This document shows, one piece after another, positions 25,018 to 62,300 of a stretch of 64,000 bases of DNA. Both the position numbers and the translations under genes were made by a program. A model generated the notes under the pieces. The model was not told the origin of the DNA and ran no database searches. It worked only from the letters and a program-made list of their open reading frames with translations. This DNA comes from Eledone cirrhosa (Eukaryota): the NCBI GenBank assembly GCA_964016885.1, contig OZ024749.1:29264001-29328000 (forward strand). The letters run 5' to 3'. How positions within the stretch are numbered: position 1 is the first letter of the stretch; each line of letters starts with the position of its first letter.

Positions 25018-26346
25018 ATGTCTGCCAAGATGTCATCTGTATGGAGTATAGTGTTATCAAGTATGTATATCAGTTTGCTCTTCTTAGCTCAACATTCTTT
25101 TATTGCTAATTCTGCTGACACTACTATGCCACCAGATTACAAGATGTCACCAGATTACGACAAGATGTCACCAGACTACGACAAGATGTCACCAGATTAT
25201 GATAAGATGCAACAATACAAACATCAGCTTTCTTTTCCAATTAATGACTTCACTTTAAAAATATTTCAACAACTTGTTGAGTCAAAGACAGGAAACATAT
25301 TATGGTCACCATTCCTAGTTAGTATGAGTCTCGCATTTATTCAGATGACTGATAGAAAAGCCTCTGCAGAGAAATTCCAATCTCTGATCTATCCTTCCGT
25401 ATCTTGGGAATTATTCCATCAAAGTTATACAGAATACCTAAAAACTCTCCAAGATGTACCAAAGTTCCAACTTTCTAATAAATTATATATCGACCCAGTT
25501 TTACTTCCTCAAATCAACACTAACCTTAGCAGATATTATTTCTTGGAAATAGATGAAATTCATCCTAGAACTATTGGTAAACTAAGTGAGAAGCTACATA
25601 AAAACAAAATCACCAACTTCATGGCATTTGGCAAGACAAATCAAGAAATGTTAGCTGTGTTGGTGAACAGCCTGCATTTCCAAGGATCTTGGAAACATCA
25701 GTTTAACAGGAAGTTTACAATGAAAGAAAACTTCTATGTGACAGAGACACAAGTGGAACCTATAGAAATGATGTATACCGAAGATTATTTCAGTATGAAA
25801 TCAGATGAACGTCTTAGCTTTAGGAGTTTAGAGATACCCCTGGTTGGAGACAGATTTAGTTTCTATATAATTCTTCCTGATGATCTTGAAGGAATTACAA
25901 CAATAGAAAACAAACTAACGTCACGATTGTTATGGCAAATTATTGCCAATAAATCTCCTCCTAGGAACGTTGCTTTGATTTTACCAAAGCTCCAGACGAA
26001 ATCTAATTTTACTTTTCAAGACATTTTATTCAAAGAAAAGATTAGCAGTGTGTTTGATCTGGAAAGTAACAATCAAACAAACCCAGACACACATTTAATT
26101 CATGAGCTACACCAAGGTTTTATCAATATCAATGAATTTGGAATAACAAGTAACCCTGCCTCTATGAGTAAATCAAGTCATTTGAGGGAAAAAAAGGCCA
26201 AATTTGATACATCTTTCACTGTTAATCATCCATTTTTATACTTTGTTGTTGATAAAACTTCTTTTATGATTCTACATGTGGGCAAATATACCAAGCCTGA
26301 AAGTGGTATGGTACAACAACCACAACATAACCATGATGAGCTTTGA
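25018..26346 (+). CDS. Serpin-family protein, 442 aa, with signal peptide and C-terminal HDEL ER-retention signal; CDS in one exon
   Basis: Serpin motifs NILWSPF, LVNSLHFQGSWKHQF, T...FYV, MM, LEIP, FYIILP, LPK, ININEFG, FTVNHPFLYFVVDK...ILHVGK. Hydrophobic N-terminus. A splice acceptor (ttttccag, ending 25005) just before the ATG implies an upstream non-coding exon. Confidence 0.95.
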   Translation: MSAKMSSVWSIVLSSMYISLLFLAQHSFIANSADTTMPPDYKMSPDYDKMSPDYDKMSPDYDKMQQYKHQLSFPINDFTLKIFQQLVESKTGNILWSPFLVSMSLAFIQMTDRKASAEKFQSLIYPSVSWELFHQSYTEYLKTLQDVPKFQLSNKLYIDPVLLPQINTNLSRYYFLEIDEIHPRTIGKLSEKLHKNKITNFMAFGKTNQEMLAVLVNSLHFQGSWKHQFNRKFTMKENFYVTETQVEPIEMMYTEDYFSMKSDERLSFRSLEIPLVGDRFSFYIILPDDLEGITTIENKLTSRLLWQIIANKSPPRNVALILPKLQTKSNFTFQDILFKEKISSVFDLESNNQTNPDTHLIHELHQGFININEFGITSNPASMSKSSHLREKKAKFDTSFTVNHPFLYFVVDKTSFMILHVGKYTKPESGMVQQPQHNHDEL

Positions 26347-28404: not shown

Positions 28405-28467
28405 TTATTCCAATTTCAAGTCATTGATTGCTTTCATAATTTCATTGTACTTGGATACTTTCTCTAT
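28405..28467 (-). CDS. EIF2A: eIF2A last coding exon ([20 protein letters not shown])
   Basis: Acceptor tttcag; TAA at 28405-28407; AATAAA on - near 28272-28281. Confidence 0.9.
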   Translation of the reverse strand: MEKVSKYNEIMKAINDLKLE

Positions 28468-31400
28468 CTGAAATGGAAATAAACAAATATATCATCAATA
28501 ATCAATCAATCAATAATTTATTTTATTTATTTAACTCTTAACGTCCTGTACCACATGAAACCACATTAGCAAAACATTCTTGAAAACTATATACAAAACA
28601 CTGAGTCCACCCTGTAAGGTCGTTGTGTTGGTGACACCACAAAAAGTACCCAGTTCAGTCAGTTCGTTGTTTTGGTGCCACGACAAAAAGTACCTGGTCC
28701 ACCTTGTAAAATGGTCATCTTGGTGCCAAGATAAAAAGCACTCAGTCCGCCTTGTAAAGTAGTCATGTAGGTGACATGATAAAAAGCACCCAGTTCACCT
28801 TGTAAAGTTGTCATCTTGGTACCACAATAAAAAGCACCCAGTTGACCCTATAAAGTGAGCATGTTAGTGTCACAATAAAAAACACCCAGTCCATGCTGGT
28901 TGGTGTTAGGAAGGTCATCCAGCTGTAGAAACCAAGCCAGAAACAGTTCTGTATAAGCAAGACACAGTCACCTGATCTGACTTGTCTCACATCAGGACAA
29001 CTCATCTAACCCATGCTAGCGTGGAAAATGGACGTTAAACGGTGATGATGGCTGTCATCTCCCACTATCTCTCTCTCTCCAATCCAATGTCCAAACTATC
29101 CTTACCTGGCATTTATCCAGAGTTTTCCCAGATTTCTGTTCTTCCTTCAGTTTATTGATCTGAGTAAGTTTCTGGGAAGAAATAAAAAACACAGAAATTT
29201 CCATAAATATAACAACAGCATCCTAATATACAGTTTAACATAGTGCAGCAATAATACAGATTGTACAATCACAAACACACACATACAATCCTATCACATG
29301 CATACCCTCACACCTCATATATAATCCTATCATACACATACAATCTTATCACATATATACACACAGACATATAAATATATATATAGCCTCATAACATGGC
29401 AGGCCATCTAACCCATGCAAGTATAGAAAATAGACATTAAACAGTGGTGGTGAAAGTGGTGATGATGGAGATGTTGGTAATAATGATGAAGTTGTTGGTG
29501 AGGTTGTTAATGATGATGAAGATGTTGATGATGGTGATAATAGTTCTAGTTATGTAATTTTACCTTCTTTAAGTTCTTTATTTTCTTACTTTTATCACCA
29601 TCTCCTGCTTCAGAATTGGTTTTCTTCTCAACAGTGACTGGTGCTGGGTCAGAGTTGTTGGCTTGTTGATTCTTAAGTAAAAGACAAAAAAAAAAAAAGA
29701 CTTCAATGGCTATTCCACAACCCCTCTGGTATTGTTGCCATGAAAATACACCCAGTACACTCTCTAAGATAGTGCTTGTGCTATGATAAAATACACCAAG
29801 TACACTCTGTAGAGTGGTAGTGTTGGAGCTATGAGGAAATACACCTAGTACGCTCTGTAAAGTGGTAGTGCTGGTGCCATGAAAATATACCTGTAAGGCA
29901 GTAAGTATTGATGCTATGATAAAAAAGCAACCAGTACACTTTGTATGGTGGTAGTGCTGGTGCTGCAAAAAATGTTCCCAGTAAATCCTGTAGGGGGTAG
30001 TGCTGGTGTTATGATAAAATGCAACCAATACACTCTGAAGTGGTTGGTGTTAGGAAGAGCATCCAGCCATGAAACCATATAGAAAACAGAATTCATGAGA
30101 GCTAGACATGGTCACCTGACCTGTCTAGCCCCATAACCCATGCAAGTATAGAAAATAGACGTTAAAAAATGGTGATGTTGATGATCATGATTCCAGTTAT
30201 ATAATTTTACCTTCTTTGAATTCTTTGTTTTCTTATTTTTCTCACTATCTCCAGTTTCAGAATTGGTTTTCTTCTCAACAGTGACTGGTGGTGCTGGGCC
30301 AGAATTGTTGGTTTGTTGATTCTAAAGTAAAAGGAAAAAACACAAGAAAAATAACTTTAACTCTTTAGTTACTAATCCAGCCAAAACCAGCGCTGGTTCT
30401 ATGAAATAAAGCCACCCATTTTTAAAGTTTCCAATTTAAATTAAAATCTTTCAACATAATTTTATATAAGAACCTTATATTAAGTTACTATCTTAGTAAT
30501 GAAATAATTAATACTTTTAGTAAATCCCTCAAAATTCTTCATTAATTAATTAAAATACGAGTGTATTTCATTAGAAATGTGGTCATGAAAGAGTTAATGA
30601 TCATTTCAATGGTGTTTGTCACCATTTCTCATAGATACAGACATGGCTGTGTGGTTAAAGAGTTCACTTTGGAACTATGTGGTTTTGGGTTCAGTGTCTT
30701 TTACTATAGCCTCCACTTGACCAATGCCTTGTGAATGGAATTTAGCAGTTAGAAACCCTGCTTCTATTATCCCCTACCATCTTGTCTTGGAGTAGATAGA
30801 TCAGAACAGTGGAGCAATAATAGTCACTGTTATTAAACTCAACTGATGAATGGATTATTTAGTGAACTAATATAAACTGAGGTGAAACTCAACTAGTGGT
30901 GATGGTGTAGATGGTGGTTGTGTTGGTAGTGGTGGTGGTGGTGATACTGGTTGTGCTGATGGTTTAGATAGTGATGGTGGTTGTGCTGATGGTTTAGATA
31001 GAGATGGTGGTGGTGATAGTGTTGGCGGTGCTGGTAACATGGAAAAATGGACATTAAACAGTGAAGATGATGGTGGTGCTCCTAGATATATAATTACCTT
31101 CTTTGAATTCTTTGATTTCTTATTTTTCTCACCATCTGCTGGTTCAGGATTAGTTTTCTTCTCAGCAGTGACTGGTGCTGGGTCAGAGTTGTTGGTTTGT
31201 TGATTCTAAAGAAACAGAAAAAGACAAACATAAGAAAAAAATCCAACAATTGTTCCACTGCACACCCCCAACACTAACCATGCCACCTCCACTATCACAC
31301 GCTAGTAGCTATCTCTCCACACCTGTGTACACCCCCTCACCCATCCCTCTCTGCTATCACATCTTAACTATTCTCATCATCACTACACTATCAGAGGTTA

Positions 31401-32914
31401 CTGCATCACCTCCCACCACACTTGCCATACAGCCATGACATCAGACTTACACTGTAAAGTGGTTGGTAATTGGAAGGGCATCCTGCTGAAGAAAGCTTGT
31501 CAAACAAAGAGTAGGGAGGACCTTTGAGTTGTGCCAAAAACTCGACAGTCTCTCTAGTGCTGGTGATCTACAAAATAAATGCACCCAATACACTCTGTAA
31601 AGTGGTTGGTGATAAGAAGTGTATCCAGCCATAGAAAGATTGCCAAACAAAGGGTTGGGAGGACCCTTCAGTTGTGTCAAAGAGATGACAACCTCCCTAG
31701 TGTTGGTACCAAGATAAGATGTACTCAGTAGAACATGGGACCCTATGTAAAGGAGATGCAGGCTCCTGACCTGTCTGGGAGGTCAGTGGCTCCACTTCAG
31801 TAGTGTGAAGACCCGTGCAACCCTTGCTAGCAGGAAAAAATGAACCTAAATGATTATGATGGAATACATATATAATCTGACCAATCCAAGCATAGAAAAT
31901 AGATGTTAAACAGTGTTGATAATAATGATGATAGTGGTGGTGGTGGGGGTGATGATGCTAGGAATAATGGTTGTAGCGATGGTGGTGGTGGTGGTGATAG
32001 CTGTGATGGTGATGATGTTCCCAGATATATAATTACCTTCTTTGGTTTCTTATTTTTCTCACCATCTTGTTCAGGATTAGTTTTCTTCTCAACAGTGACT
32101 GGTGCTGAGCCAGAGTTGTTGGTTTGTTGATTCTAAAGAAACAGAAGACAAAAACATAAGAAAAATAACTTTAAAAATTGTTCCACTGCTGTTTGTCACC
32201 ATTGACTACCCTACAGATAGGGGTGTTAACCCTTTCATGATCACATTTCTAATGAAATACTCTCTATTTAAATTAATTAATGAAGAATTTCAAGGGATTT
32301 ACTAAAATTATTCATAATTTCATTACTCAGATAGTAACTTAATGTAGGATTCTTATATAAAATTATGATGGAAAATTTTAATTTAAATTGGAAAACTTAA
32401 AAATAGGTGATTTTATTTCATAGAACCAGCCCTGGTTTTGGCCAGGTTGGTAATTAATGGGTTAAAGGTGGTGAGTTAGAGGGGTGACCTCCAGTAGTAT
32501 GGAAAGCTACTGTGATAATGATTGCAATGATGATAAATGTAGTGATGGTGATGTTGGAAGCAATCGTAAAGGTAATGGTGGTAGTGGTGGTTGTGTTGGT
32601 TATGATGATAATGGTGATGATGATGATGATGATGTTCCCAGATATATAATTACCTTCTTTGAATTCTTTGATTTCTTATTTTTCTCACCATCTCCTGTTT
32701 CAGGATTAGTTTTCTTCTCAACAGTGACTGGTGGTGCTGGGCCAGAGTTGTTGGGTTGTTGATTCTAAAGAAAAGGAAAAAAACTTTAAAGACCATTCCA
32801 CTGATATTTGTCACCATTTCACAGAATGTTATTAATGTATTGAGAATGTAATCGATAGCAGTTACGCAGCTCCTAGTCTCGACAAAATACATCCATTCTG
32901 CCATGCATGCTCAG

Positions 32915-32947
<33 letters not shown>

Positions 32948-35900
32948 ATGTATGTTTATATATGTGTTTATATATATATATCTAACCCATGCTAGCGTGC
33001 AAGATGGACGTTAAACGATGACGATGATGATGATGATGATGTATGTATATGTATATATATATATATAGATATACACATACATATATATATATATCATCAC
33101 CATTTTACGTCCATTCTTCCACACTAGCATGGGTTAGACGGGTTATCCTGTTGTAGGCAGTGCCTGGTCTTGCTGTGTGTGTATATATGTATATGTATAC
33201 ACATATATACATATATACACACATATAATCTAACCCATGCATGGAAAATAAACACAAAACAGTGACGATGGTAGTGATGATGATGATGATGATGATGATG
33301 GTGGTGAATCCAGATATATATAATTATATAATTACCTTCTTTGAATTCTTTGATTTCTTATTTTTCTCACCATCTCCTTGTTCAGGATTAGTTTTCTTCT
33401 CAACAGTGACTGGTGGTGCTGGGCCAGAGTTGTTGGGTTGTTGATTCTAAAGAAACAGAAGACAAAAACATAAGAATAATAACTTTAACACCATTGACCA
33501 CCTTACAGATGGGAGTATATTAAGGGTGGCCGCCAGTAGGATGGTGGATGCCTCTTCCACGGGTCCCAGCAACCAATATGTCATGGGAGAGTGAGGGTGG
33601 AACATCATTAGTGCAGAAAGCTACTGAGATAATAGCTAATCGCGATATGACTGGTGTGTCAGGGTTATAGTGAGGGATTTATCAAGAGTAGGAAGTTGGA
33701 TGCCTCTTCCACAGGTCCCAGCTACTGATGTTTCTCTGCACTTTAATCAGCTGTCATCTTTCATTCACATCACATGTCCATACCAGTGCAGTCTTCTCTC
33801 TTGCTCACTACATCCAATTCCTCTTATGTTCACTTATACAAAGTCATTCATGCACACTAACATTACACATCCATCGGAGCATACTCACTTCATTTTTTTC
33901 TAGCCGTCCCAGGTCTTCTTCAATCAAGGCCCATGTTTCACTGCCATGTAACACTGCAGTTCACACGTGTCATACAGTTTATCCTTCACTTGAAGAGAGA
34001 CCCCCCTTTGTTGTCAGCAGAGGTCCCATCACCCTAAACTTCTAGCCTGTTTTTACACTGGCTATCACATTTTCAGAGCATACTCTTCTACCTAGGTAAC
34101 AAAAGCTGTCATCAACTTCTAAGGAATCTGCCAGGCCACTGAGGGTATTAATTTCATGTCAGCTTTTAGTGCTTACTTCTTCTGCACATCTGCCACTTAT
34201 AAAATCGATGTTCTCCATTAACTTGCTAATAATCCCACACCTCTTGTGTCCAGGAATGTACAAGCTAGATTTGGTCACCTGATTGATCTAGTCCCAGAAT
34301 GTGACAGCCCATCTAACCCATACAAGCTTGGAAAATAGACAATAAATAGTGATGGTGGTGATGATGATGATAGATATTGGTTGTGATTATGATGATGATG
34401 ATTCTGGCTGTGTCATTTTACCTTCTTTGGATTCTTTGTCTTCTTATTTTTATCAACATCCGTTTCAGAACTGGATTTCTTCTCAACATTGACTGGTGCT
34501 AAGCCAGGGATGTTAGGTTGTTGATTCTAAAGGAAAAGGAAAAAACAAAATAACTTTAATGATCGTTCCTCTGTTGTTTATCATCTCTTAGATACAGGCA
34601 TGGCTGTGGTGCGGTATATATCTAGTTATTGTGAGTGGTGTGTGTGTGTCTTTCTGTTTGTTTATGTCCCTTAAAATAATTAGGCTTGAAAACATAAGTA
34701 CATGGGGGTTGATATAATCAGCTAAACCTTCTTAATGTGGTGCCCCAGCATGAAACCAGTTAAATAATAACAGAATCAAGTTACCTGTTTCTGAGCTTTT
34801 GACTTCTTATTACTCTTCTTTCCAGTGTCGGCAGAATAATCTGTTTAAAAGATTTCAAACTTTTGTAAATTTGATCTCATCAGAAAATTTCAATTTATAC
34901 TTCTGAAACAATTTAACCCTTTTGAAACCAACCTATCGGACATTGCTTCTTCCAATTCTTTAATCCTTTAGCATTTAAACCGGCCGTATCTGGCCAGAAT
35001 TCTCTTACCTCTTTCTCTTCAAACCAGCTGTAACCAGCCACTCGTACTGACATTAGGGTATGGTTCTCAAAGTAAATAATATCAAAAAAATCTTGTAGAT
35101 TCGATATTATTTGAGATAAAGCCTTTACCATGAAAATATAATAGTATATATAAAGTAATGTAAATGCTAAAGGGTTAATACAATTAACCTCAATTTTAAT
35201 TTAGAACCTGCCCTCATAATCTTATGTATAAACATTCTAATATGTTCCAAACACACATTTAATTCTTTTGAGACCATCCCACCAGACACAGTTTCTGATC
35301 TTTGATACAAATAACCTCAGGTTTAAACTGTTTAAATTTAATTTAAAAAACCTTCTTCTTCTTCGCTCACTTATTCCTGGGAGAGTTGTGGTGGCAGTCT
35401 TCAAGAACTTCTTCCAGTAGGTCTTGTCAGAAGCTACTGTCTCTATTTCATCCGGCTGGATCCCCAAGATGTTATCCAACCATCTTGGGTCTCCTGCCAG
35501 TTGGTTTTGCCCATAAAATCTGTCCAGTGATTCTTTTGTGAGTCATTCTAGCCAATTTAAAGCCCTCCATCATAATTTTATATAAGAGCATTTTGTTATG
35601 TTTCAAACACAAACTTAAACCTTTTGATACTTCATACCAACCCACCAGAAACCATCCATGTTCTATGAAATAAAATTTGCCCATTTTAAAGTGTTCATAC
35701 TTATATTAAAACCTTTCATCATAATTTTATGGAAGAACCTTTGTTAAGTTATGTTCCAAAAATCTTACTAATAGAAAAGTTTTGATTATTTTCAAAATTA
35801 TCTGAAACACATTGGTAGCGTCTTTCAGTTGAAATATGGCCAGGAAAAGGTTGAAGAAAAAAACTGAGAAATGTTAATACTTACTAAGACCTGGGATTTT

Positions 35901-38900
35901 CTTATTCGAAGGGGGTTCAAATTCATGTAACTTGAATTCTGAAGCAGGCTGATCCCGAGCATGTGGGGGGCGATACGCTGCAACTGGTTTCACTATAAAA
36001 ATATACAATTTTTTAAAGATATTTTAGACTGTATTGACAATGACTAAGATTATTCCATGTAATGATTTGATATTTTAAAAAATATAAATGCAACTGCAAG
36101 TACAGTTACAAACAGTATTTATGGAAAGCAACACATGACTTACATACGAGCTAACATTTTAGACATATTTGATATTTCTTAATATAAATGCAACCGCAAG
36201 CAAAGTTACAAACAGTATTTATGGAAAGCAACATCTGATTTACGTGACAGTCAAAGGATGAAATAAAAATATTATAAACCCCAAAAGTGACTTATCTACA
36301 AATATATATATATACAGTAGTTATAAAATGTAGTTTAGTTTAAACACCTGTCTGGGCTGGTAGTGAAGACCCTACTTTCTTATAGGCGATAGGTTTCACA
36401 GGAAATTTTCCTTCCATATCTGGCATCCACAATGATTCCCATAATTCTTTGCCAGATGCTATATCCAGCTCGGCCAAAATAGTGCCAGTATAATGCCATA
36501 TTTTATACCTGAAATGGAATTAAGTAAAAATTAAAAATAAAATATTGAAAGTTTTGTAGAAAGATTCAACTTTTAGAAATTACAATATTTTGAAAGAATA
36601 ATTGAGGAATATTTTATCTTTTTAATAAACAACAACAATAACAACAAACATTTTAAGGTGGGGGTGATAGACTTCATACTTATGATGGGGTCTTAGTTGA
36701 AGATATGGAATATTTCATACATACAAAAAGGAGAATAGTGACACACAGGGATATAGTGTATCTATTGTAAACTAGATACACATAAGATACAGTGTACCTA
36801 TTGTAAACCTGATACACACAGGGATATGGTGTACCTATTGTAAACCTGATACACACAGGGATATGGTGTACCTATTGTAAACCTGATACACACAGGAATA
36901 TGGTGTACCTATTGTAAACCTGATACACACAGGGATATGGTGTACCTATTGTAAACCAGATACACACAAAGATAGTGTACCTATTTTAAACTAAACACTC
37001 AGGGATATTGTGTGCTTATTGTAAACCAATCTACTACCTTTAATAATAATAATAATGGTTTCTGATTTAGGCACAAGGCCAGCAATTTGGGGAGAAGAGA
37101 AAGTCGATTAAATCGATCCCAATGCAATGCTGGTGCTTTATTTATCGACCCCATAAGGATGAAAGGCAAAACTAACCTCGGCAGTATTTGAACCTAGAAC
37201 ATAAAGGGCCACGTAACTCTATGCCACGAAGCATTTGGTCTGATGCTCTACTGATTCTGCCAATCCATATTAATAACAATGGTTTCTTATATAGGCACAA
37301 GGCCAGCAATTTGGGGGGAGAGGACAAAGTCGATTATATTGTCCCCAGTGCATTACTGGTGCTTTATTTTATCGATCCTGTAAGGATGAAAGGCGAAGTT
37401 AACCTTGGCGGGATTTGAACTCAGAAAATAAAGGGACGTAACTCTAGGTTGCAAAGCATGGCATCCGATCCTCTACTGATACTGCCAAATAACGATGATA
37501 ATAGTAATAACAATAATGTATTTACCCATTGCCAACACGAAGTCTAGGAGCCATTGTTGCTGTAATAAAGTGTACCCCATCAGGACACCAACAGAAATAA
37601 GTTGTATCCATGGCTTTAGTAGAACTGATTATTTTCTGCTGTTGAACATCCCAGAATTCCAGGTCACCTTGGAGATTACCAAATCCAGCCAGGCACAAAA
37701 GTTAAACAGTTAAGTACAAATAATTAGGGATTCTATTGTCACAGGTACCCATATGATCCCTGATGAAGTCATATGGGTACCCTCATGTTAATGTCAGCAT
37801 GGACATGTTGGATGTAAGAATGATGAGTGTGATGGTGATAGGGGAGGGAGGTGATGCTAATTATGATAATGGTGATGGGTGTGGTAGTGATGATAAAGAT
37901 GACGGTGGTATGATGTTGATTATGATGATGGTGAAAATGATAGAGGTAAAGATGATGATGGCGGTGAAGGTGATGGTGGTGGTATGGGGGATGTGATGAT
38001 GATGATGGTAGTGGTGGTATGGGGGGAATGATTATTATGATGATACTCCTAAGGCAAGCCATTACTCTGACCCCCCCCCCCCTTTATGTAAAATATAATT
38101 GAAAGAGCAAAGGATATTGTTTCCCTGAGGATTATAAAAAGCTGAGTTCCTGGCTGCTGTTCCATAGTCAAAGACTGGATCACATTTCAGGTTATAGACT
38201 GTAGCTTTGGCTGGCATAACTGGTGGTCACTGGTTAAGGAAGAAATACTACTGGCAGAACAGCAGATTATTGGAATAGATGAAAGCAGAATGTAGGAATA
38301 AATCATTGAAATATTTCAAAAGCATGTCATGAGGTTTATTAATGAGAAAGACCTAAATAATACAGTTAATACACCTACAAACTACCTGCATCAGTTGTTA
38401 GCTGTCGGGACATTGCATCCTTCAAATCATCCATGCTTCCTGAAATTTGCCAACACTACACCTGATATTCCCCCTCCATAAACACGCACACATGTATCTG
38501 TGTGTATATCATGACTCATACACAGTTCACTTTCCTAATATGTGTACATTATTCTATGTACTATTGTGAGGGTGGTGAATTGGCAGTATTGGTAGAGGGT
38601 CGGATGCCATGCTTTCTAGCATAGTTACGTCCCTTTACGATCTGAGTTCAAATCCCATTGAGGTTAACTTAGCCTTTCATCCTTATGGGGGGTCAATAAA
38701 ATAAAGTACCAGTAATGTACCGGGTATTTGTTGGCCTTCAGCCAAAAGTAGAAACAATTATTCTCTGTACTATTCATGCACCTTTGATGATTTGTAGTGC
38801 ACCTGAGCACTGTACACAATAATCTCCATTATTATTATAAGAAATGACAACAAATTTATGAGCATGTGGTTAGAATGTCTCAGGAAACAATCGCTGGACA

Positions 38901-41078
38901 GATTTTACAAGCAAAACCAACCAACAAGAGATCCAGGAGTAGACCCCAAGCAAGATGGTTGGATAACATCCATGAGCTTGGCTGGTCTCGTTTGGGGATC
39001 CAGCCAGATCAGTTGGAGACGGTTGCTTCTGACAGGACCTGCTGGGAGGGTTTGAGGACTCTGCCCCCAACAACCCTCTCAGGAATAAGTGGGAGAAGAA
39101 GAAGAACCTCAAACTGTTTGGCCACATCATACACTCAAATTGTGGTCTTTCTCTCTCTAAAATCTGTTTTTTGGGGGAGCAGGTATGATTCTAGGACAAA
39201 TAAACTAAGGACATCCCCAATGGTAGAGAGAGAGACCAGATCCTAAGATGGTCTCAATGGAAGAAATATGTTAATGATGTTTTATATAAAGTTCTTTTGT
39301 CACAACCTGTGACATTATCAATGGCTTTGTGGTTCTCATGCACATCCCCATCACCAGCAATTACACTCCATCTTCATTGTCTGTTTCTCAGAGCCAAAAC
39401 CAAAGTGAAATACAACCAGAATGTGTGTGTGTGTGTTTATTAGCTGTGTGTGTGCTTATTGGCAGTGTAACTAAAATACCACAATATCTGTTTCAACACC
39501 ATATCTTTCAAATTAAAGAAAGAACCTTACAAAACAAATACAAAAACATTATTTAGAAGAATGCAGAGAAAGGATACAGCCATAAACCACACAGAACTGG
39601 GTAGAATTGGGATGCCATTCTACACAATATACAGGACCATCTTTGGCTGAAAGTAAAATAATTTATATAAGTTTACTCAAATATCAGAAACAATAAAATA
39701 TCAAAGATCTATACTTTAATGGTTTGTTCCCACTCAGGAAAGAATAGCTGGACAGATTTTACAGCCAAAACTAACTGGCAGGAGACCCAGGGCTAGAAAC
39801 CCAAGCAAGATAGTTGGATAATATCCATGGGCTCATCTGGTCTCGCTTAGGGATACAGTTGGATTAGTTGGAGATAGTTGCTTCTGACAGGACCCACACT
39901 GAAAAGAGTGTTTAAGGACTCTGCCCCTCAAGAATAAGTGGGTGAAGAAGAAAAAGATTTATGCTTCATTCATCACCATTACTCCAGCTCCCATTATTAT
40001 AATTGTCAAATTTTAAACCTTTTCATGTTGGCAGTTATATCATCATCATCATTTTATGTCCCCCTTTTCCATGCTAGCATGGGTTAGACAGGTATTTTCC
40101 AGCACAACATTCCCCTGTTTGTTGTGTTCCTTTATCATCTCTGTTCGCTTCAGCAAGCAAAGATCATTTCTCATCACCTTTGCCCAAGTCTTCCTCTACT
40201 ACAACTACCTTCCACTAGGATTTCTTGGAAGGTTAACCATTTCAATTACCACCTTTCTAATAAAATACACTGTATTTTAATTAATTAATGAAGAATTTTG
40301 AGGGATTTACTAAAATTATTAATTATTTCTTTACTAAGATATTAATTTAATGTAAAGTTATTATATAAAATTATGTTGGAAAATCTTAATTTGAATTGGA
40401 AATTTTTAAAATGGGTGGTTTTATTTCATAGAACTAGAGCCGGTTTAGTAACTAAAGGGTTAAATAAACAAGATAAAGACATTAAATGATGATGATAGAC
40501 ATTCAAAAGAATTTAGGAAGAAATTCTAGAAAAAATAGTTTTGTATCATAAAGCCAGGGATGGTGTCAAGTAATTTTGTATCTTAAGTGTTAGTTAACCT
40601 TTGAAAAAGATTATATAATCAATGCAAATATTTACCTCTGGGCACAAGGCAACCTTCACCTTTTATGCTAAGGTAATGAAGCCCTGTCTCACCATAGTAA
40701 GACTTATCTGATGTTTCAGTCGATGTAATTACAAGCAAACCAGTACCTGTGGGCAAAAGTAGAAGAGAAAGAAATGAATAGATTATTGGAGTTTTCCTAC
40801 TATATCTAGCATTAAACTAATATATTTTTTCATTATACTGAATTGTTTGCTTTGTTGTTTGTTTTTTTTGCATATATGAGGGTTGGCTGAATAGTTCATA
40901 GGTTGACTATGAAGGAGTGATACTAGAGCAGTGAAATCTTGCATGCATTAATTTCAACTCTTATTAATAATTGCATTATTTATTTCTGGTGACTATGTTG
41001 AAAAATAAACTTCATTAAGTCATTCCATGAGAGTATCTTCGTCAGCCTATAAACTTTTCAGCTGACTCTTGTATGTAT

Positions 41079-41123
<45 letters not shown>

Positions 41124-44100
41124 AGAGTCAGCTGAAAAGTATATATATAGTGTTGGTATCTTTAAGAAGCAGAATGTTAATAATATGAACAATAATAATT
41201 GTTTCTACTTTAGGCACAAGGCCAGCAATTACCCAGTGCATTACTGGTACTTTATTCTATCGACCCCGGAAGGATGAAAGGCAAAGTTAACCTCGGTGAG
41301 ATTTGAACTCAGATCATACAGGGAGGTAACTCTATGCTTCAAAGCATGGCATCCGACCCTCTACCGATACTGCCAATCCACCGCCTTGACAATAATAATG
41401 ATATATATGTATGTATTATGTGTGTGTATATTATATATATATATGTATACTTACCAGCTTTATTCCAATACATTGTTGTTTTATCAGCTTTAAAAAAGCT
41501 TTTATTTGCCAGGGGGCATCCATTAAAGTTGGGATATTTGAAAATTCGAACATTTGATGGTTGGCCCTGGAAATATAAGAATGTTTGAGGAATTTGTACT
41601 TTACAAACAACAAACCTTTTAACTACCTAAATACACTACCACCACTACTACTACTACTACTAACACTACTACTGCAACAACTATCATCATCACAAGTAAT
41701 ACAACCACCAACACTACCACTACCACCCTCACTTCTACTACAACCACCAACACCTACCATAGCCACCACTACCATAACTTCTACTACAACCAAAACTACA
41801 ACTACTACTAAAGAACTATTTCAAAATAAAATCTCACCTGTCCACCCCCAGTCACCACCACCCACAATATCAAACATAACATAACATAAGAAGATCCTAA
41901 AACTTACCTTACTGCCAGGAATATAAATAGCAACATGGTCACTCTTAGAAAAGCCATATTCAGAGATTTTGGCAGCATGAAGACGTGTCTTTGGTGAATC
42001 TGGAAGAAATTCAATATATATAAAATTATTCCTATACTTTTTCAATATTTAAATATTATTTTGTTTTTGTTTTTGTTTGAAATTGAAAAAAAAAAAAAAA
42101 AAAAAAAGAAAACCCCTGGAATTTGGGGCTCATATCTCTACAGGTTTAGATTGGCCTGCTACGAGACTTCTTTCATGGCTTCCAACCACTTTACAGCATG
42201 TACTGGGAGCTTTTTTCATGGCACCAGCACTACCACTATACAGCATGTACTGGAAGCTTTTTTTGTGGCACCAGAACTACCACAATACAGCATGTACTGG
42301 GAGCTTTTTTTTGTGGTACCAGCACTACCATCTAAGAGAGTGGATTGAGTGCTTTATGTCATGGCACCAGCACTACCACTTTACAGCACGTACTGGGAGC
42401 TTTTTTCATGACTGCAGCGCTACCACTATACACCATGTACAGGGAGCTTTTTGACATAACACCAGCACTACCACTATACACAGTGAACAAGGTTCTTTTT
42501 TCGTGGCACCAGCACTATCACTATACAAAGTGAATTGAGTGCTTTTTGTCCTGGCACCAGGACTACCACCTTACAGGGTTACTTAGCTGATTTTTCTCAA
42601 CTATTATTATACTCATTTGCATTAGGACACACACATTTCGAATTTCAATAACAACAACAATAATAATAATTGTAAACAAACCAAAGTTTCCATTTTCATA
42701 AAATTCCACATCGTTGTTATGGAGACGAACCATTAGTTTGTCATCTGGGGTCCAACTAGGTTTCCTTGAAAGAGAAAATAAGATAAGGTTTTCAATAGAT
42801 TTTCTTTACAATCAATTGACAAGATCCCAGACCTCATTTGCTTACTGAGTGTGGTGGACCTCGTCAAATTGGACCAAGGGAACAATGTTTCCATTGGTCT
42901 TTCTATTGTTAATACTATCTAGAGTGGACCTTGTCAAATTGGATCAAGGAAACAATATTTCTATTGGTCTTTCTATTGCTAATACTATCTACTGGTCACA
43001 ACATAAAATAAAATATCTTGCTCAAGGACATAATGCACCCCCCCCCCCCCCCCACCCCACACACACACTTTACAGAGTATATTAGATGCATTACTTCTTG
43101 ATAGAAATTTTTATGGAAAATTTTTAATTTAAATATGTATATTTTAAAAGTGGCTTTTTTATATCATATTTGAAAAGTGGGAGGGGGGGAGGGACGTAGT
43201 TAGAAAAGGGTTTTGTATCATAGAAAGAGAGAGGAAATATTTAGAAAAGGGTTAAAACTTACCAATCAGACATCCTTTTGTGGAAGAATCCTTTCAATAG
43301 TTTACCTGTAGCGGTTTCCCAAATGCAGAGGTTAGGAACATCTTTCTTTTGACCTAGGAAAGAAAATTAGTTCTATATATAACAATTATTTCTGATTTAG
43401 GCATAAGGCCAACAAATTAGGGAGATGGGAAGGTCGATTAAATCAATACTAGTGCATTACTGGCACTTTATTTCATCAATCCCGTAAGGATGGAAGGAAA
43501 AGGTAATCTTGGCAGGATTTGAACTCAGAATGTTAAGGAACGTAACTATATGCTACAAAGCATTTTTTCTGACACTCTATCGATACTGCCAATTCCTCAA
43601 TAAGAATCTTTATTGTACATAAATATCGTCATCATCATCATCATTTAACATCTATTTTCCACGCTAGCATGGGTTAGACGGGAATTGTCCCACTTGAGGC
43701 AAGATTGGTCGGGTGACCATATATATATATATATATTTTGAGTTTATGTTGGTTGTATACCAACACCTCAGTATGCAGGCTGGAGCACTCGACGAAGTGC
43801 GCAGGTTGGTTTGGTTACTCCGGAGTAGTGTAAAATAAAGTTAAATAAAAGTCAAATGATTAAAATTTAGCTTCGTTTATTACTGCTATATATATTTCAG
43901 TGACAGCCATCTTTGGCTGTGACCTCTTCAGGCAGTTTGAATTAGTATGGTATAGACAAGTACATATGTTGTTTAGGTGTATAATATTGTCAATACTCTG
44001 ATATGACCAGTTCCTTGTTGGGTTGTTAATTCACTGAGGAACTGGAGTCATATCCATATGACTCCAGTTCCCCAGTGAATTAACAACCCAATAAGGAACT

Positions 44101-44600
44101 GGGCATATCAGAGTATTGACAATATTATACACCTAAACAACATATGTACTTGTCTATACCATACTAATTCAAACTGCCTGAAGAGGTCACAGCCAAAGAT
44201 GGCTGTCACTGAAATATATATAGCAGTAATAAACGAAGCTAAATTTTAATCATTTGACTTTTATTTAACTTTATTTTATATATATATATATATACATATA
44301 TATGTGTATGTATACATATTTATATGTACATACAAGGGTATGCTGAAAAATTCATAGGCTGATTATGAATGAGTGATGCTAGAGCTGTGAAATCTTGCAT
44401 GCATTATTTCAACTCTTATTAATAACTGTATTACTTCTTTCCAGAGACTATGTTAAAAACGTAACCTCATTTGGTCATCCCACGAGAGTATCTTGGTCAG
44501 CTTATGAACATTTCAGCCGAACCTCGTATATATACAGGGTCCCAAAAAATGTATACACACTTCAGCATTCTAATATATGTATATATTTCTGTGGGACACC

Positions 44601-44644
<44 letters not shown>

Positions 44645-47600
44645 AACATCATCATCATCGTTTAATGTACATCTTCCACACTAGCATGGGTTGGACAGTA
44701 TATATATACATATATATACATCATCATTTCATTTTACGTCCACTTTTCCCTGCTTGCAAGGGTGGGACGGGAACTGATTCTGGCTTGATTTCTACAGCTG
44801 GATGCCCTTCCTAACACCAACCTCATTTACAGTGAGTGCTGGGTGCTTTTTTTCCGTGGTACCTCCACGACCACTTTGCAGTGGAATGATAGGGACCCCA
44901 GTCCCTATCATCTCATTTCTACAGCTGAGTAAACTGGAGCAATGTGAAATAAAGTGTCTTGCTCAAGGAAACAACACATCACCCGGTCTGAGAATTGAAC
45001 TCACAACCTTTCGATTGCAAGCCCAATGCTCTAACCACTAAGCCATGTGCCTCCATACATGTGCATACATACATGTATATATAAATGTAGCTGTATAGAG
45101 CAATGTGTACTTACTGGATATATCGGCAGATATAAGATATGTTCCAAGTGGTGAAAATGAAAGGCCAGATATTTTAGATTTCTCAATTGTGATGACCTTC
45201 TTATAACCACTGGTCTTCATGACAGTGATGCTGAAATAGTAAAATACCATTATTAGAATTACAACTACATAACCAATGGTGAGATAGAGACATCGTTGAT
45301 AGAGAATTCCTGCTTCTGGTATGAATGAAAGTATTTTAGAAACCCCATCATGGATTGTGGAGAGACTTTGTCAGGAATGTTTGACCATGGTCACAATGAT
45401 GTGAACACTTTAAAACAAAGTTTCTCTTCATAACACCAGGGGTAGCTTCAGACAGTTTGATAACAAAAAAGGTTAAGATTTAACTGTTTTAATGCGATGA
45501 CATTAATACTTTCATAAAAGTCATAGAAATCACTAAAATAAAGTGAAATAAACGAAATTCCTGGCAGGAAACTTCTATAAACAATGTCTGTCAACTGTCT
45601 CATGTGATTCACAACATTAATGATTTGTGAGGAAGTCACTCGACTTTCAAGAAGACAGCTAGATTTAAAACCCTGATATATCATCTCTGTAATGTTTTTG
45701 GTTACATGATCATGGCTGATATATACTGGAGACACATACTAAATGAATCATCATCATCATCATTGTTTAACGTCCATTTTCCACATTAACATGGATTAGA
45801 CGTTCTGTCTCGTTGTAAGACAAGCCAGGTCAGAGGACCATGTTTTGTTCACCCAGAACTGATTTTGGCTTGGTTTCTATGCCCTTAACCCTTTAACATT
45901 TAAACCGGCCGTATCTGGCCAGAATTCTCTCACTTCTTTCTGTTCAAACTGGCTGCTTGTACTTATGTTAAGGTATTGTTCTCAAAATAAATAATATCAA
46001 AATCTCATAGATTCGATATTGTGAGGTAAAGCCTTTTCAGTGAAAATGTAATAGTATATAGAGAGTAATGTAAATACTAAAGGGTTAATATCTATATTGG
46101 CTAAAACTATCAAGGTGGTCAATAGGCTGTCTAATACAATAAGATGACAGGAATTCATCTAAAGCAAAGTAACATCTGAATTCTTACCCTTCTTCATCGC
46201 ACGAGGCAAAATACTGGCCATTCAAAGAGAAGGCCATGGCACGACATTCCGAGTTTCCATCCCTTGAAGAAAGAAAATAAGAATATATTGATGAAGGTAA
46301 AACTTAACTGTTTCCTTACCAAATATCTTTCAGCACATTCTTGTATGAACACTAATGATTTTGAATTAATTTTGAAAATAACCAAGAATGAAGGTATTTA
46401 GTAATATAACTAACTTTCTCAATATTAAGTTGGTGTTTGGAACATAACTTAATGAAAGTGTTTATATAAAAATTATGTTGGAAGGTTTTTAGATAAATAT
46501 ATATACTTTAAAACAAAGAGTTTTGTATCATAGTACCAGAGTTATTTGGAACATAAAGGTTCTTTCATAAAATTATGATTGAAGCTCTTTAGATTAATAT
46601 AAATACATTAAAACAAATGGTTTTGTATTGAAGAACAAAGAGTAGTTTGGTATCAAAAGGTTTTAACTCTTTCATTACCAACTGAGCCAAAACCAGCCTT
46701 GGTCATATGAAACAAAATTATCCATTTGAAAAGAGTCGTATGTTAAATATAATTTTCCAACATAATTTTATATAAGAACCATAAGTTAAATTAGTAATGA
46801 AATAATTAATAATTTTAATATATATCCTTAAAATTCTTCACTAATTAATTAAAATAGAGTGCATTTCATTAGAAAACAAATTTTCTAACAATGGCAAAAT
46901 TATTTGAACAGTGGAGGAGATGCCTTGCAATATTTATTCCAGTCTTGATGATCTGAGGATATTGTTCCCTCTCCTCCTCCCCTTCCTAGTCTTGGAGACC
47001 CAAGAAAAGGGCCATCAGTATTGCTCTTTCTTCACTGACTAAAGAGTAAAACAAAAAATATCTTCAGCAAGCCAAACCCTTAACCCTTTTGGTTCTATGA
47101 AAGAAAACCACCCATTTCAAACAATTCCCATATAAATTTATATCTTCCAACATGATATTATACAAGAACCATATTTTAAGTTAATATATTAGGAATGAAA
47201 TAATTAATCATTTGAGTAAACCTTTCAAAATTCTGCATTAACTAATTGAAACGGAGTATACCTCATTATAATTACAGTAACGGAAGGATTTATCTCACAT
47301 ATATTAGGATCCTTGTAAAATATTTTACATACAAAGATTACTTGTACACTATAATTAGCATATAATAATGGTTTCTGCTTTAGGCAAATGCCACAAATGT
47401 TTTGGGGGGAGGGGAAAGTCGATTAAATCGACCCCAGTGCATGACTGGTACTTTATTTTATTGATCCTGAAAGGATGAAAAGCAAAGCCGACTTCGGTTA
47501 CATTTCACCTTAGAATGTAAAGAGCTGGAAACAAATACTACCTAACATTTTATCCAACACTTTAATGATTCTAGCAACCCACTGCTCTAAATGTGCAATA

Positions 47601-50600
47601 AAAATAGTATGGCATGGTCCTGTAAGTTCTGATGGAGTCGTAGGCACACCATAGTGGCATACAGCATTTCTTGGGCACTTAAGCCTGACAGAAGAACCAA
47701 TCCCTCTCCAGGTCAATAAAAAATGAGAACAGTTAAATGAAAAGGAAAAGTAAATATAATAAATATAAACTTGCCCTCGAAATACTTCTTTAGATTTGTT
47801 TGGAGCACCTTGAAGGACCCAAACTCCATCTGTACCACGCACTGGAAACATAAAAAATTCATTTATGAAGTAAAAGGTCAATAATTTTTTTTTTAAAGCC
47901 AGTACAATGCGGTAGGAAAATACAAAGGGCAAATGACAAATGAAACAAAACAATTTGAAGTAATTTTTTTTTTACACAGTATATTTCAGGGTTATTATCT
48001 TTTCAAACGTGGGACTGAAACAGTTCAAGACAAAACCATTAGAAAACTCTGAAAATGAAGTAGTGTAGTATTAACTACACTACTCTATTTTCATTTATGA
48101 AGTCTTTCTAAATTTATTGTTGTTTAAAGACACTAGATTAACCCTTTAGCATTTAAACTGGCTGTATTTGGCCATAATTCTCTCACCTCATTCTGTTCAA
48201 ACCAGCCACAACTGGCTGCTCATAACGATGTTAAGGTATTATTCTCAAAATCAATAACATCATCAAAATCTCGTAGCTTTGATATTATGTGAGATAATAC
48301 AATAGTAAATATAGACTAATGAAAATGCTAATAGGTTAAAGACATTAGATTAACTTATAAAGATGAAAACTGAAGGAAGGATGATTCCAAGTGGTTAATG
48401 GGCTGGTTTCATGATGATAAGGTTGTGGGTTTGATCCCTAGATAAGGCGGGATGTTGTGTCCTTGAAAAAGGTTCTTCATTTCATACTTCCACAGTTCAC
48501 TCAGGTGAGAGAGAAAGAAATGAATACCAACAACAATCTTTCCAAGTGAAAGTATTTACTATCAGCAAATCCAGGGCCTTCTCACTCCCGTTGAAGGAAC
48601 CTCTTCCTGGTTGACCTTGACTGCTGTTTCCTATCTCTGGCTATACAGGGCCATGTAAGGCAAAGATATCAGGTCAGATCATCGCGCCATCTGGTTCTTC
48701 TTCACTGTTTTGGTGTCCACACTGTTGCTCTAACAGTCTACCTATTGTCCCTGAAACAAGAGATCTAGCCAACCCATTTATGTTTGCCCTTCTTGGTGGT
48801 CTTGATTATGTCCTTTACTCCAGTCAGCTGTCAAATCCAGGTGTTGCTCTTGTTGTCACGTAAGGTGATGCCGAGCATGATTTGCTCCATTTTACATTGG
48901 GCCACTGCAGTGATCTTCTTTAGTGTCTATGTCTCACTTCCATAAGTCATTACCAGCAGAACATATTTATTAACCCTTTAGCATTTACATTACTCTATAT
49001 ATATTATTGTATTTTTGTGGTAAAGGCTTTATCTCACATAATTATCTCGCACAATATCGAATCTATGACATTTTGATATTATTTATTTTGAGAACAATAC
49101 CTTAATGTCAGTATGAGCAGCTGGTTATGACCAATTTGAACAGAAAGAGGTAAGAGAATTCTGGCCGGTTTAAATGCTAAAGGGTTAAACAATTATATCC
49201 CATATATCCTTCCATACTTGTCTGTCAATCCACGGGGACTCAGTATTTGTCAGTTGCTCCAAATATGATCCATGTTAATGCTAGGACACTGGTCTTTATC
49301 TGTGAGTATCATAGTTTTAGAATAGACTCACTGTGTATCACCACATGTTGTTGGAGGTGACTAAAATGAGGGGGTAGGGTGGGTGTGAAAGGAAGGACAA
49401 CTGGCTGTAAAACATTGCCTTAAAAACACCTGTCCAATACATAACAGTTTGGAAAAGTGGGGCATAGTCAACAATAGATCTCAAATGAAGAAAATGAAAA
49501 TACCCAGTCAAATCCACAGAGATTCATCGAGTATCATCATCATCATCGTTTAACATCCATCTTCCATGCTAGCATGGGTTAGACGGTTTTGTTCCATTTG
49601 ATGCAGGAATGGTCGGGAGACCATGTCTCGCTCATACGGAAATGTCTCTGGCAGGTTATTTTACAGCTGGATGCCCTTCCTAACACCAACCACATTTACA
49701 GTGTGGACTAGGAGCCTTTTACCATGTCTCCTACACAACACCTTACAGTGTGGACTGTTGTGTCATCGACACAGTGGACAGAACGGAAAAGAGAGAATGG
49801 GGTGTGGGTGGGGTGTACATTGGGTATATATACTTGATGAATATGTGGATCTGACTGGATATTTTCATTTTGTGAAGGCGCATGGCTGAGTGGTTAGAGA
49901 ATTGGATTCACAATCGTGAGGTTGTGAGTTCGATTCCTAGACCAGGCGATGCGTTGTAACTTTGAGCATGACACTTTATTTCACGTTGCTCCTTCTACTT
50001 GGAGTTGCAACTGATAGATAGTATTAGCAATTGGAAAGACCAATGGAAATATAGTTTCCTCGGTCCGATTTGAAGAAAGTCAATCGACTGTCGATATACA
50101 TATATATATATACAGGGTGTCCCCAAAAATGTATGCACACTTTGATTACCTGTACAGGCAATATTTATTAGAATGCTGAAGTATGTATACATTTTTTGGG
50201 GGACACCCTGTAATTATATATATGTATTAAAAACAACACGAGGTTTCTCATTAAGGCTTTTATTGATTCTACACAGTTACGGCCGTTTCATAGATGGGTG
50301 GTTCAGGGTCCATGTTATTATAGACCAGACTCCAACCCAATCTGTTCATCAGACTTGTTAATCAAGAAAAACCAAAACCTCATATATATATATACACACG
50401 TTGGGGTTAGGATGAGAGCAAAGGTTACGGTTAGAGTCGGTTCATGTGTGTTTATGTATGAATATGGTCGGAAAATGTGCAATAAATCCAGTGAATTGGA
50501 CGAGATATTTTCGTTTTCTTCAAACCAGATCTATTGTCCGTGATACTCGAGAAATGGACGTAAAAACAAAGCTTTAGCCATTACATAATTAAATACACAT

Positions 50601-51421
50601 CATTTGTTTGATGGATACAATGGAAAAGGTTGTAACATATGGAAATATTATTAGGTAGAATAACCAATTCTACCTTTGTCACTGTGACTATGTGTCTACG
50701 TATGTATCTGTGTATGTCTACATATATTCATATATATGTTTGTGTGCGTGTGAATATATGCACCTGTGTCTAAGTATGTGTATGTGTGTTTAAATACGTC
50801 CATATATGTGTGTATGAGTGCGTGCATGTGCAGTGCGTGCGATTTCTATGTGCCTGTGTATGTTTTTTGTATGTGTGTTTACATATGTCCATGTATGTAT
50901 ATGTGTGTGTGTGTGTGTGTGAGTGTGAGTGAGTGAATGCACTTGCCAGTGCGCGTGAGTGAGTGCGTGCATTTGCCAATGCGTGTGAGTCTATGAATGT
51001 ATGTGTACGTGGGCGTCTATATATGTGTTAGCTACATATGTATGTATTAGTTACATATGTGTATGTGTCTACGTATGTATGTATATATTTCAATGCGTGT
51101 CTATATGTCAGTACATATACGGCAATCGAGCCGGCGAGATAATCCCCGTGCTTAACCCTGATTTTCAGCTGTCGACATTTAACTTAGACTGATATCACCG
51201 AGAAAATGATGAACGTCACATAATCACACTTATTTTCTTGTATTAGAGTCCGATCTATGCTTATTACTATTTTATTTACACACCTGGTCGAACGATTTTA
51301 CAACTTTTGCAGAAACAATTTGATATTATATATATGATTCCTAATTTTTTTTTTCTCTTTACGCTCCCCAACCTCTCTCTCTCTCTATATATATATATAC
51401 ACGCGTGCGCGCCGCACACAT

Positions 51422-51469
<48 letters not shown>

Positions 51470-51794
51470 AGTAAGGAGAGAAATACGCATAAATGTGTTC
51501 AAATTATAAGTGATGTAAATAGAGAGAGAGAAAGTGGTGAGTGTAAAGAGAAACAGAAATTAAGGAATCACATTTTTGATGCAAAAAAAATGATCGTAGA
51601 GGCATTTGTAAATGTTATATATATATATAATGTATATATATATATATATATACATAAATTTTAACGTTATAATAAATATAATAATTGATAGAATTGTTAA
51701 GAGTAAATATAATTGAACTGGCGCAGAAGTCATCAATAAGGTTCGATTGATTAACGAAATATAAACGGTTACTCGAAAGCATGTTAACACAGAA

Positions 51795-51848
<54 letters not shown>

Positions 51849-61639: not shown

Positions 61640-62300
61640 CTGGATGTTTATTCAGTTTAGTATAGGTACACTGTATCCCTGTTTGATTCTGGTTTACAAT
61701 AGATACACTGTATCCCTGTGTATATCTGGTTTACAATAGGTACACTGTATCCCTGTGTATATCTGGTTTACAATAGGTATACCATATTCCTGTGCGTATC
61801 AGGTTTAGAATAGGTACACTGCACCCCTGTGTGAATCTAGTTTAAAATAGGTACTCTGTATCCATGGATGTTTATTCAGTTTCCAATAGATACACTGTAT
61901 CCCTGTGTATATCTGGTTTACAATAGGTACACTATATCCCTGTATGTATCTGGTTTACAAAAGGTACACTATCCTTGTATGTATATAGTTTACAATAGGG
62001 ACACTGTATCCATGTGATTCTGGTTTACAATAGTGCCACCATATTCCTGTGCGTATCTGGTTTAGAATAGGTACACTGTATCCCTGTGTATATCTGGTTT
62101 ACAATAGGTACACCATATTCCTGGATATATCTGGTTTACAATAGGTACACTGTGTCCCTGTGTGTATCTGGTTTACAATAGGTACACTTTATCCCTGTAT
62201 GTAGCTGGTTTACAATAGGTACACTTTATCCCTGTATGTATCTGGTTTACAATAGGTATGCAATATTTCTGTGCGTATCTGGTTTACACTGTATCTCTGG
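61640..62300 (-). repeat. 37-bp minisatellite, about 17 units; reverse complement of the 36740-37030 array
   Basis: Unit GGTTTACAATAGGTACACTGTATCCCTGTGTATATCT. Confidence 0.9.

Follow-up and report, generated by a model that had tools for sequence, protein, structure and literature searches.

What is a gene to do with seven copies of one exon? The question is raised by a stretch of 64,000 nucleotides (nt) from Eledone cirrhosa (assembly GCA_964016885.1, contig OZ024749.1, positions 29,264,001 to 29,328,000, forward strand), called the window below, with positions counted from its first letter. It holds the gene for the translation factor eIF2A. An earlier reading of the bare sequence, the original prediction, placed seven homologous exons at 29564..34526 in the C-terminal region of this gene, and proposed that selection kept them either as a constitutive tail or as an array of cassettes. 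The exons are there. We argue, from sequence comparison and with about as much doubt as confidence, that they are a near-neutral tandem expansion of an exon encoding a disordered basic linker, and that they are mostly spliced in together to give a protein of 774 amino acids (aa).

It is worth stating what depends on this. The mechanism of eIF2A is still debated, and its linker varies little in length among the animals sampled. Should the array be translated, Eledone would provide a natural test that the eIF5B-binding region and the mRNA-binding helices can be set more than three times as far apart. The way two short motifs are split between the first and last copies hints at which motifs matter, and the array is a clean example of one whose edges are conserved and whose middle is homogenised. 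Silent copies would make it no more than a minor curiosity of the genome. That symmetric disordered exons can be duplicated in tandem is, as a general mechanism, already well known. This is a known gene altered by a known process into an architecture that is absent from the homologues examined.

The gene and its seven exons

The identification as eIF2A holds. A 24-exon model occupies 28405..52046 on the minus strand, from an ATG at 52046 to a TAA ending at 28405, with an open frame of 774 aa. It is 86% identical to eIF2A of Octopus vulgaris/sinensis over 556 columns (90% in the propeller, residues 1-420), and in a tree of 9 proteins it clusters with Octopus and Argonauta with support of 98/98. 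The Octopus vulgaris/sinensis protein scores 245 bits on PF08662 (cut-off 20.5) and is matched exon by exon in the window, so the Eledone protein should have the N-terminal WD beta-propeller with this domain. The AYRPP motif is present and the last 42 residues are 61-67% identical to cephalopod homologues; the AYxPP motif and the C-terminal helices predicted beyond a disordered linker are those of an eIF2A. A protein search of the 3.0-Gb genome with eIF2A gave 13 matches. All 13 fall inside this locus, so it is the sole eIF2A gene found in the genome. A protein search with exon 13 alone gave 12 candidates, none at E <= 0.001.

For exon 14 there are two possible AG acceptors, at 35992 and 35983 on the minus strand, which lie 9 nt from each other and are both in frame. 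The model uses the upstream one, at 35992, which fits the Octopus vulgaris/sinensis protein. With it the predicted lengths of 774 aa for all seven copies and 560 aa for copy 7 only are reproduced, and copies 1 and 7 together give 595 aa. The calculated masses are 85.6 kDa for the 774-aa form and 62.4 kDa for the 560-aa form.

The array lies on the minus strand between exon 15 (34785..34840), which ends in phase 0, and exon 23 (29106..29171), which carries the remainder of helix 1. Exon 24 (28405..28467, also minus) is the last coding exon and includes the stop. Copy 1, which is exon 16, is found at 34526-34422 (105 nt, 35 aa). It is the sole copy with the ancestral IPGL motif, and it has lost the isoleucine and leucine of the helix. 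Copy 2 (33446-33336, 111 nt, 37 aa) is 98% identical to copy 3 (32764-32654, 111 nt, 37 aa), while over 42 nt its upstream flank shares 97.6% identity with the one of copy 4. Copy 4 (32132-32037, 96 nt, 32 aa) is the shortest, with gaps of 3, 3 and 9 nt relative to copy 3. Copies 5 (31205-31098, 108 nt, 36 aa) and 6 (30321-30211, 111 nt, 37 aa) follow. Copy 7, which is exon 22 (29671-29564, 108 nt, 36 aa), is the sole copy with the conserved start of helix 1 (GD...KKIKNLKK) and has lost IPGL. The restriction of KKIKNLKK to this copy, and with it the special status that the original prediction gave it, is borne out.

All seven copies have AG/GT ends, a length divisible by 3, no stop codon and phase 0-0, as had been described. 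They are adjacent, homologous exons with intact splice sites in one phase, with flanking intron duplicated alongside, and that is a tandem exon duplication. The claim that they differ only by whole-codon indels is not correct, since substitutions occur too. Comparison of the copies gives 28 variable columns out of 111, at least 32 changes and pairwise identities of 81-98%. There is no eighth copy in the window (nhmmer gives 7 matches at E <= 5.4e-27 and the next best has E 7.1), and a DNA search of the 3.0-Gb genome finds the same 7 matches, all within the array. No second copy of any of the other 17 eIF2A exons was found within the window.

The six inner introns are 521-975 nt long, all GT-AG and of the same phase, and their middles are unrelated. 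In intron 19 (31206-32036) a CAC/CAT-rich 5' part pairs with a GTG/GAT-rich 3' part in a predicted fold that would bring the donor of copy 4 near the acceptor of copy 5; this fold was computed without a shuffle control.

What the repeated exon encodes

The exon corresponds to residues 482-517 of Octopus vulgaris/sinensis eIF2A. In the AlphaFold model of that protein the predicted local distance difference test score is below 50 over residues 458-504, and helices span 506-530, 537-544 and 546-558. The exon therefore encodes a disordered stretch followed by the N-terminal half of helix 1. Its counterpart in a 586-aa primate eIF2A is residues 503-543, which is the start of the C domain.

Human eIF2A binds the initiator tRNA (tRNAi), eIF5B, mRNA and the 40S subunit. 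The binding of eIF5B is assigned to the M domain (462-501) and that of mRNA to residues 502-585, where Lys567 is essential (PMC6208778; this and the other papers cited by number are drawn on in excerpt). Both Lys567 and the M domain lie outside the repeated part, so the array separates modules and does not multiply them. In human eIF2A a stretch that is PEST-like and phosphorylated lies at 505-520, and residues 533-585 form a helix bundle (PMC7139343). The Eledone exon aligns with the part of the mammalian C domain that holds this stretch and half of helix 1, but mammals have a single segment where Eledone has seven. The C-terminal region is required for RNA binding and cell migration (PMC12315956), and the excerpted part of bioRxiv 2025.05.22.655611 reports no interactors specific to the C-terminus. 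In Octopus vulgaris eIF2A has been used as a stable reference gene, and repeats are unmentioned in the excerpt of that paper (PMC10230085).

The array spans residues 483-732 of the 774-aa model. These 250 residues include 55 lysines, no aromatic residue and 18 hydrophobic ones, and have a net charge of +25, with +3 or +4 in each of the seven copies. It is not a tail, as had been proposed, but an internal linker upstream of the terminal helices.

The linker in other eIF2A proteins

A single segment is found in the annotated proteins of Octopus bimaculoides (557 aa), Octopus vulgaris/sinensis (559 aa), Argonauta (559 aa) and Sepia (568 and 575 aa). This comparison is at the protein level and uses annotated segments. 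These orthologues share with Eledone the same AYRPP motif and terminal helices. The statement that human eIF2A has one such segment extends to all homologues examined, mammals included. Among the best 120 of 2102 eIF2A homologues, 118 are 534-629 aa long.

The distance from the AYRPP motif to the helix isoleucine could be measured in 123 of 131 proteins, after excluding 2 that are unrelated and 6 that are partial or redundant. It is 75-115 aa with a median of 88. In Eledone it is 294 aa with seven copies and 80 aa with copy 7 alone. The seven-copy array is apparently restricted to this lineage. Two homologues are longer. In one (785 aa) the extension lies beyond the last helix, and the other (844 aa) carries a reverse-transcriptase family. 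A profile of the seven copies run against 1.84 billion representatives gave 2 matches, both to unrelated repeat proteins. This blank is weak because Octopus eIF2A was missed too. No account of such an eIF2A array was found in a literature search of titles and abstract openings that left most subscription papers outside.

Two motifs of the segment can be followed across these proteins. IPGL occurs in the linker region of 5 of the 123 homologues, all of them cephalopod (twice in Octopus and Sepia, once in Argonauta). The leucine position of helix 1 is hydrophobic in 123 of 123, and the isoleucine position is I, M or V in 117 of 123. In Octopus and Sepia one segment holds both IPGL and the helix start, whereas in the Eledone array the two are in different copies. 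Argonauta has one segment without this IPGL.

Why the copies are probably used together

Since no copy (0/7) has both ancestral motifs, it is worth considering where copies 1 and 7 have changed. Relative to the Octopus vulgaris/sinensis segment, copy 1 has private changes at codons 4, 14, 19, 20, 24, 32 and 35, so 6 of 7 come after codon 13. Those of copy 7 are at codons 6, 7, 8 and 9 only, and this is the motif that copy 1 kept. The difference in position has a Fisher p of 0.015 when the cut is at codon 9 or 12, and 0.06 when it is at codon 18. Counted another way, the parts of the two copies that face into the array have 10 of 36 codons changed and those that face outward have 1 of 36 (p 0.006, with the cut chosen post hoc). 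A cut at the mid-point gives 9 and 2 changes (p 0.046). These tests, and those on selection below, were picked after the data had been inspected.

We argue that this complementary retention favours inclusion of both copies, with copy 7 always last, and disfavours mutually exclusive use. To go by the sequence, the edge pattern is what would be expected if copies 1 and 7 share one protein in which only the outer edges do the ancestral job. One can imagine instead that inner-copy sequence was converted into a functional copy 7. That is possible because Argonauta does without the motif.

The splice signals give no reason to set copies 1-6 apart. All 14 splice sites of the array are intact. The pyrimidine fraction before the acceptor AG is 0.80-0.95 in the array, with a mean of 0.87, whereas 14 other acceptors in the gene average 0.70. 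The donors of copies 1-6 match 6-7 of 9 positions of the U1 consensus and that of copy 7 matches 6 of 9. The acceptor of copy 7 is AAG where the others have TAG. Hence the signals of copies 1-6 are equal to or stronger than those of copy 7. No exon (0/7) has been interrupted despite the unrelated middles of the six inner introns.

The inference from frame preservation to selection has moderate support. When events are counted by eye, 4 of 4 indels in the exons keep the frame and 2 of 8 in the flanks do so (Fisher p 0.06), but the copies look neutral overall at the amino-acid level, as set out below. None of the 8 lysine codon columns has a residue change, against 17 of the 29 others (p 0.004), and a base-matched control restricted to A gives 0 of 16 against 6 of 22 (p 0.03); both comparisons are post hoc. 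Purine-rich sequences can act as splicing enhancers. The unchanged lysines could reflect either the charge of the protein or such enhancers, and either implies that the copies are treated as exons.

How the array was probably built

At their ends the inner introns keep homology with intron 15 (its 3' end) and with intron 22 (its 5' end). What was duplicated was therefore the exon together with its flanks. The original prediction had the introns diverged and filled with different insertions. This is true of their middles and not of their ends. It also had six copies each replacing the hydrophobic residues of the helix. The residues are lost in copies 1-6, but at each site through a single T>C substitution that the copies have in common, in the second position of the codon (columns 95 and 104, helix I and L), and not by six independent replacements. 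In copy 4 the L codon was later deleted.

Copies 2-7 have derived residues in common at codons 6, 7 and 9. The copies are mosaics, with 7 of 15 informative site pairs incompatible, and copy 2 has an exon like that of copy 3 and an upstream flank like that of copy 4. These patterns fit unequal crossing-over and conversion. Mean identity among copies is 0.90 in the exon and 0.78-0.79 in the adjacent flanks, and the inner exons are 0.91-0.98 alike where the shared intron remnants are about 0.78-0.83.

We suggest the following route. Duplication probably took in the exon and parts of the introns on either side, and the inner copies would then have been built and homogenised by unequal crossing-over or gene conversion. 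The extra copies would have been tolerated because the exon is frame-neutral and mostly disordered. Frame, splice sites and lysines would have been kept by selection, as would the two outer edges (IPGL in copy 1 and the start of the helix in copy 7), and most of the remaining residues would have drifted. The product would be a 774-aa protein in which a lysine-rich, predicted disordered linker, more than 3 times as long as usual, precedes the terminal mRNA-binding helices. The propeller and eIF5B-binding part would thereby probably be joined to the helical end by a longer basic tether, with the core function little changed. Occasional skipping of inner copies may occur because every combination stays in frame.

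Tandem exon duplication is reported for about 10% of animal genes (PMC9013439). In the excerpted account of tandem duplication of symmetric disordered exons (PMC3632108), of which ameloblastin is an example, phase-symmetric, disordered, adjacent homologous exons give a protein repeat, as they would in Eledone. The Eledone array differs from those cases in lying in a single-copy translation factor with an otherwise tight linker, and in including a decayed half-helix.

Several observations weigh against the view that the copies are spliced in together. Pooled over the copies, the proportion of nonsynonymous differences (pN) is 0.100 and that of synonymous differences (pS) is 0.108, so pN/pS is 0.93. 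Synonymous changes number 7 of 32, where neutrality predicts 6.9-8.9. The chance of finding no stops without selection is 0.19-0.31. For the CCA and 9-nt indels, which lie in short internal repeats, slippage gives in-frame lengths anyway. The exon of copy 1 is 0.81-0.85 identical to the other copies and its shared intron remnant is 0.78-0.86 identical, so copy 1 drifts at a near-neutral rate. Silent copies could be kept intact by conversion among the copies, which could also bring inner-copy sequence into copy 7. Since Argonauta does without this IPGL, copy 7 alone could be functional, and it is 26/36 identical to the Octopus vulgaris segment. The tight linker of the 123 homologues suggests that lengthening has a cost.

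Other ways the copies could be used

The strongest competitor is a combinatorial cassette array, in which copy 7 and perhaps copy 1 are constant and copies 2-6 are included in varying number, giving a ladder of isoforms from 560 or 595 to 774 aa. We consider this possible but clearly less probable than joint inclusion. Of the two options in the original prediction, constitutive use is favoured by the motif split between copies 1 and 7, and the cassette array keeps a place behind it. We found nothing that speaks for or against the tuning of RNA or ribosome binding, or of condensate behaviour, that the original prediction attached to the cassettes, and no support for a regulatory role. Every subset of the copies is in frame, the near-identical splice sites could compete, and tandem duplicated exons are often alternatively spliced (PMC9013439). 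There is also an inverted pair of interspersed repeats that brackets copies 4 and 5. One arm is in intron 18 (32226..32467) and the other, of the same family in opposite orientation, is in intron 20 (30355..30597), ending about 33 nt before the acceptor of copy 6. Neither has an assigned strand. The arms are 87.7% identical over 243 nt, and their duplex has a predicted energy of -267 kcal/mol, where 20 shuffles average -51. The pair could favour skipping of copies 4 and 5, and looping them out would give 706 aa. However, the repeat family is common in the gene, with more copies at 40233-40464, 46662-46875, 47090-47271 and 35660-35751, so the pair may be there by chance. The splice sites are not weakened either. 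The inner copies hardly differ in charge and composition, so length would be the main difference between isoforms.

In a more elaborate version copies 1 and 7 are fixed, and tissue or stress would determine the number of inner lysine-rich copies, in part via pairing between the inverted repeats. We regard such a splicing rheostat as doubtful, and a good deal more so than cassette use in general. If true, it would set the reach and RNA avidity of the mRNA-binding end of eIF2A over a range of 595 to 774 aa.

The next alternative is that copy 7 alone is spliced in, and that copies 1-6 are pseudo-exons which are skipped and have stayed intact by chance and gene conversion. The resulting 560 aa is the length of other cephalopod proteins (557-568 aa). 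The near-neutral pN/pS, the closer likeness of the inner exons than of their intron remnants, as conversion would give, and an Argonauta protein that does without a second IPGL all agree with it. However, this scenario needs a mechanism that skips six exons with splice sites as strong as those of copy 7. Roughly multiplied together, the chances of seeing no stop (about 0.25), of four invariant splice columns (about 0.3) and of in-frame indels (0.06) come to about 0.005, a figure that depends on how much conversion took place. The lysine codons are unchanged, and 4 of 4 changes specific to copy 7 fall in the motif that copy 1 kept. For these reasons we think silent copies unlikely.

Mutually exclusive use of the Dscam type, with exactly one of seven copies per transcript, is very improbable. 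The array does have the similar lengths, single phase and tandem homology that are the usual screen criteria, and in this it is like Dscam1-type clusters (PMC9013439). Unlike theirs, its copies do not appear to be interchangeable in a functional protein, because only the last keeps the invariant hydrophobic residue of the helix. Six of the seven choices would lose the leucine and the isoleucine that are conserved across homologues, and so break helix 1. Nor is a mechanism of exclusion evident. We saw nothing in the array that forces a choice of one in seven: a very short intron, U2/U12 incompatibility and a frame clash are all absent, and the introns are too long for steric exclusion. Scans for inverted repeats and whole-intron duplexes found no one-to-many docking pattern, but this is a crude test of docking or selector pairing, and whole-intron duplex energies scale with length and are uninformative.

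Finally, the array could be a mis-assembly of a single exon. Contigs of three public runs have zero mismatch across the whole of copy 1 and across the exon-intron edges of copies 2, 5 and 7. The contig at copy 7 ends at 29643, which is the end of a 31-mer common to another copy; copies 2-7 have 31-mers in common. These runs behave as genomic DNA and their joints are mostly repeats. They are all from one sample, possibly the one that was assembled, and none of the longest pieces, which were those considered, spans the array. However, the copies differ by 2-19%, the intron middles are unrelated and the unique edges agree, so an artefact is unlikely, indeed the least credible explanation of all.

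Other features of the gene and window

Several introns outside the array are unusual. Intron 10 (39577-38220, minus) has the ends GTATCCTT...AG and intron 11 (38117-37701, minus) has ATATCCTT...AC, which we take to be the signature of the minor (U12-type) spliceosome. One database model of Octopus bimaculoides eIF2A stops at this intron 10/11 point. Intron 2 (47774-46263, minus) has a GC donor in the 24-exon model and is thus a GC-AG intron. Intron 4 holds a near-perfect palindrome at 43831-44278 with 223-nt arms that are 99% complementary and a 2-nt spacer. A true fold-back or an artefact of long-read assembly could account for it. Three introns of the gene contain members of a 47-48-nt tandem repeat family, in both orientations (28672-28893, 29742-30044 and 42185-42576).

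Convergent with eIF2A and about 2 kb past its stop is an intronless open reading frame for a 442-aa serpin (25018-26346, plus; PF00079, E 1.3e-56). It has a short 7-residue repeat near the N-terminus, encoded by a 21-nt tandem repeat. Retrotransposon remains are found on the minus strand at 6162-7940 and 1056-2875, with a reverse-transcriptase frame (PF00078, E 5.4e-26) and separate ORF1-like frames. One 37-nt minisatellite is present at two sites in opposite orientation, 36741-37027 and 61655-62288.

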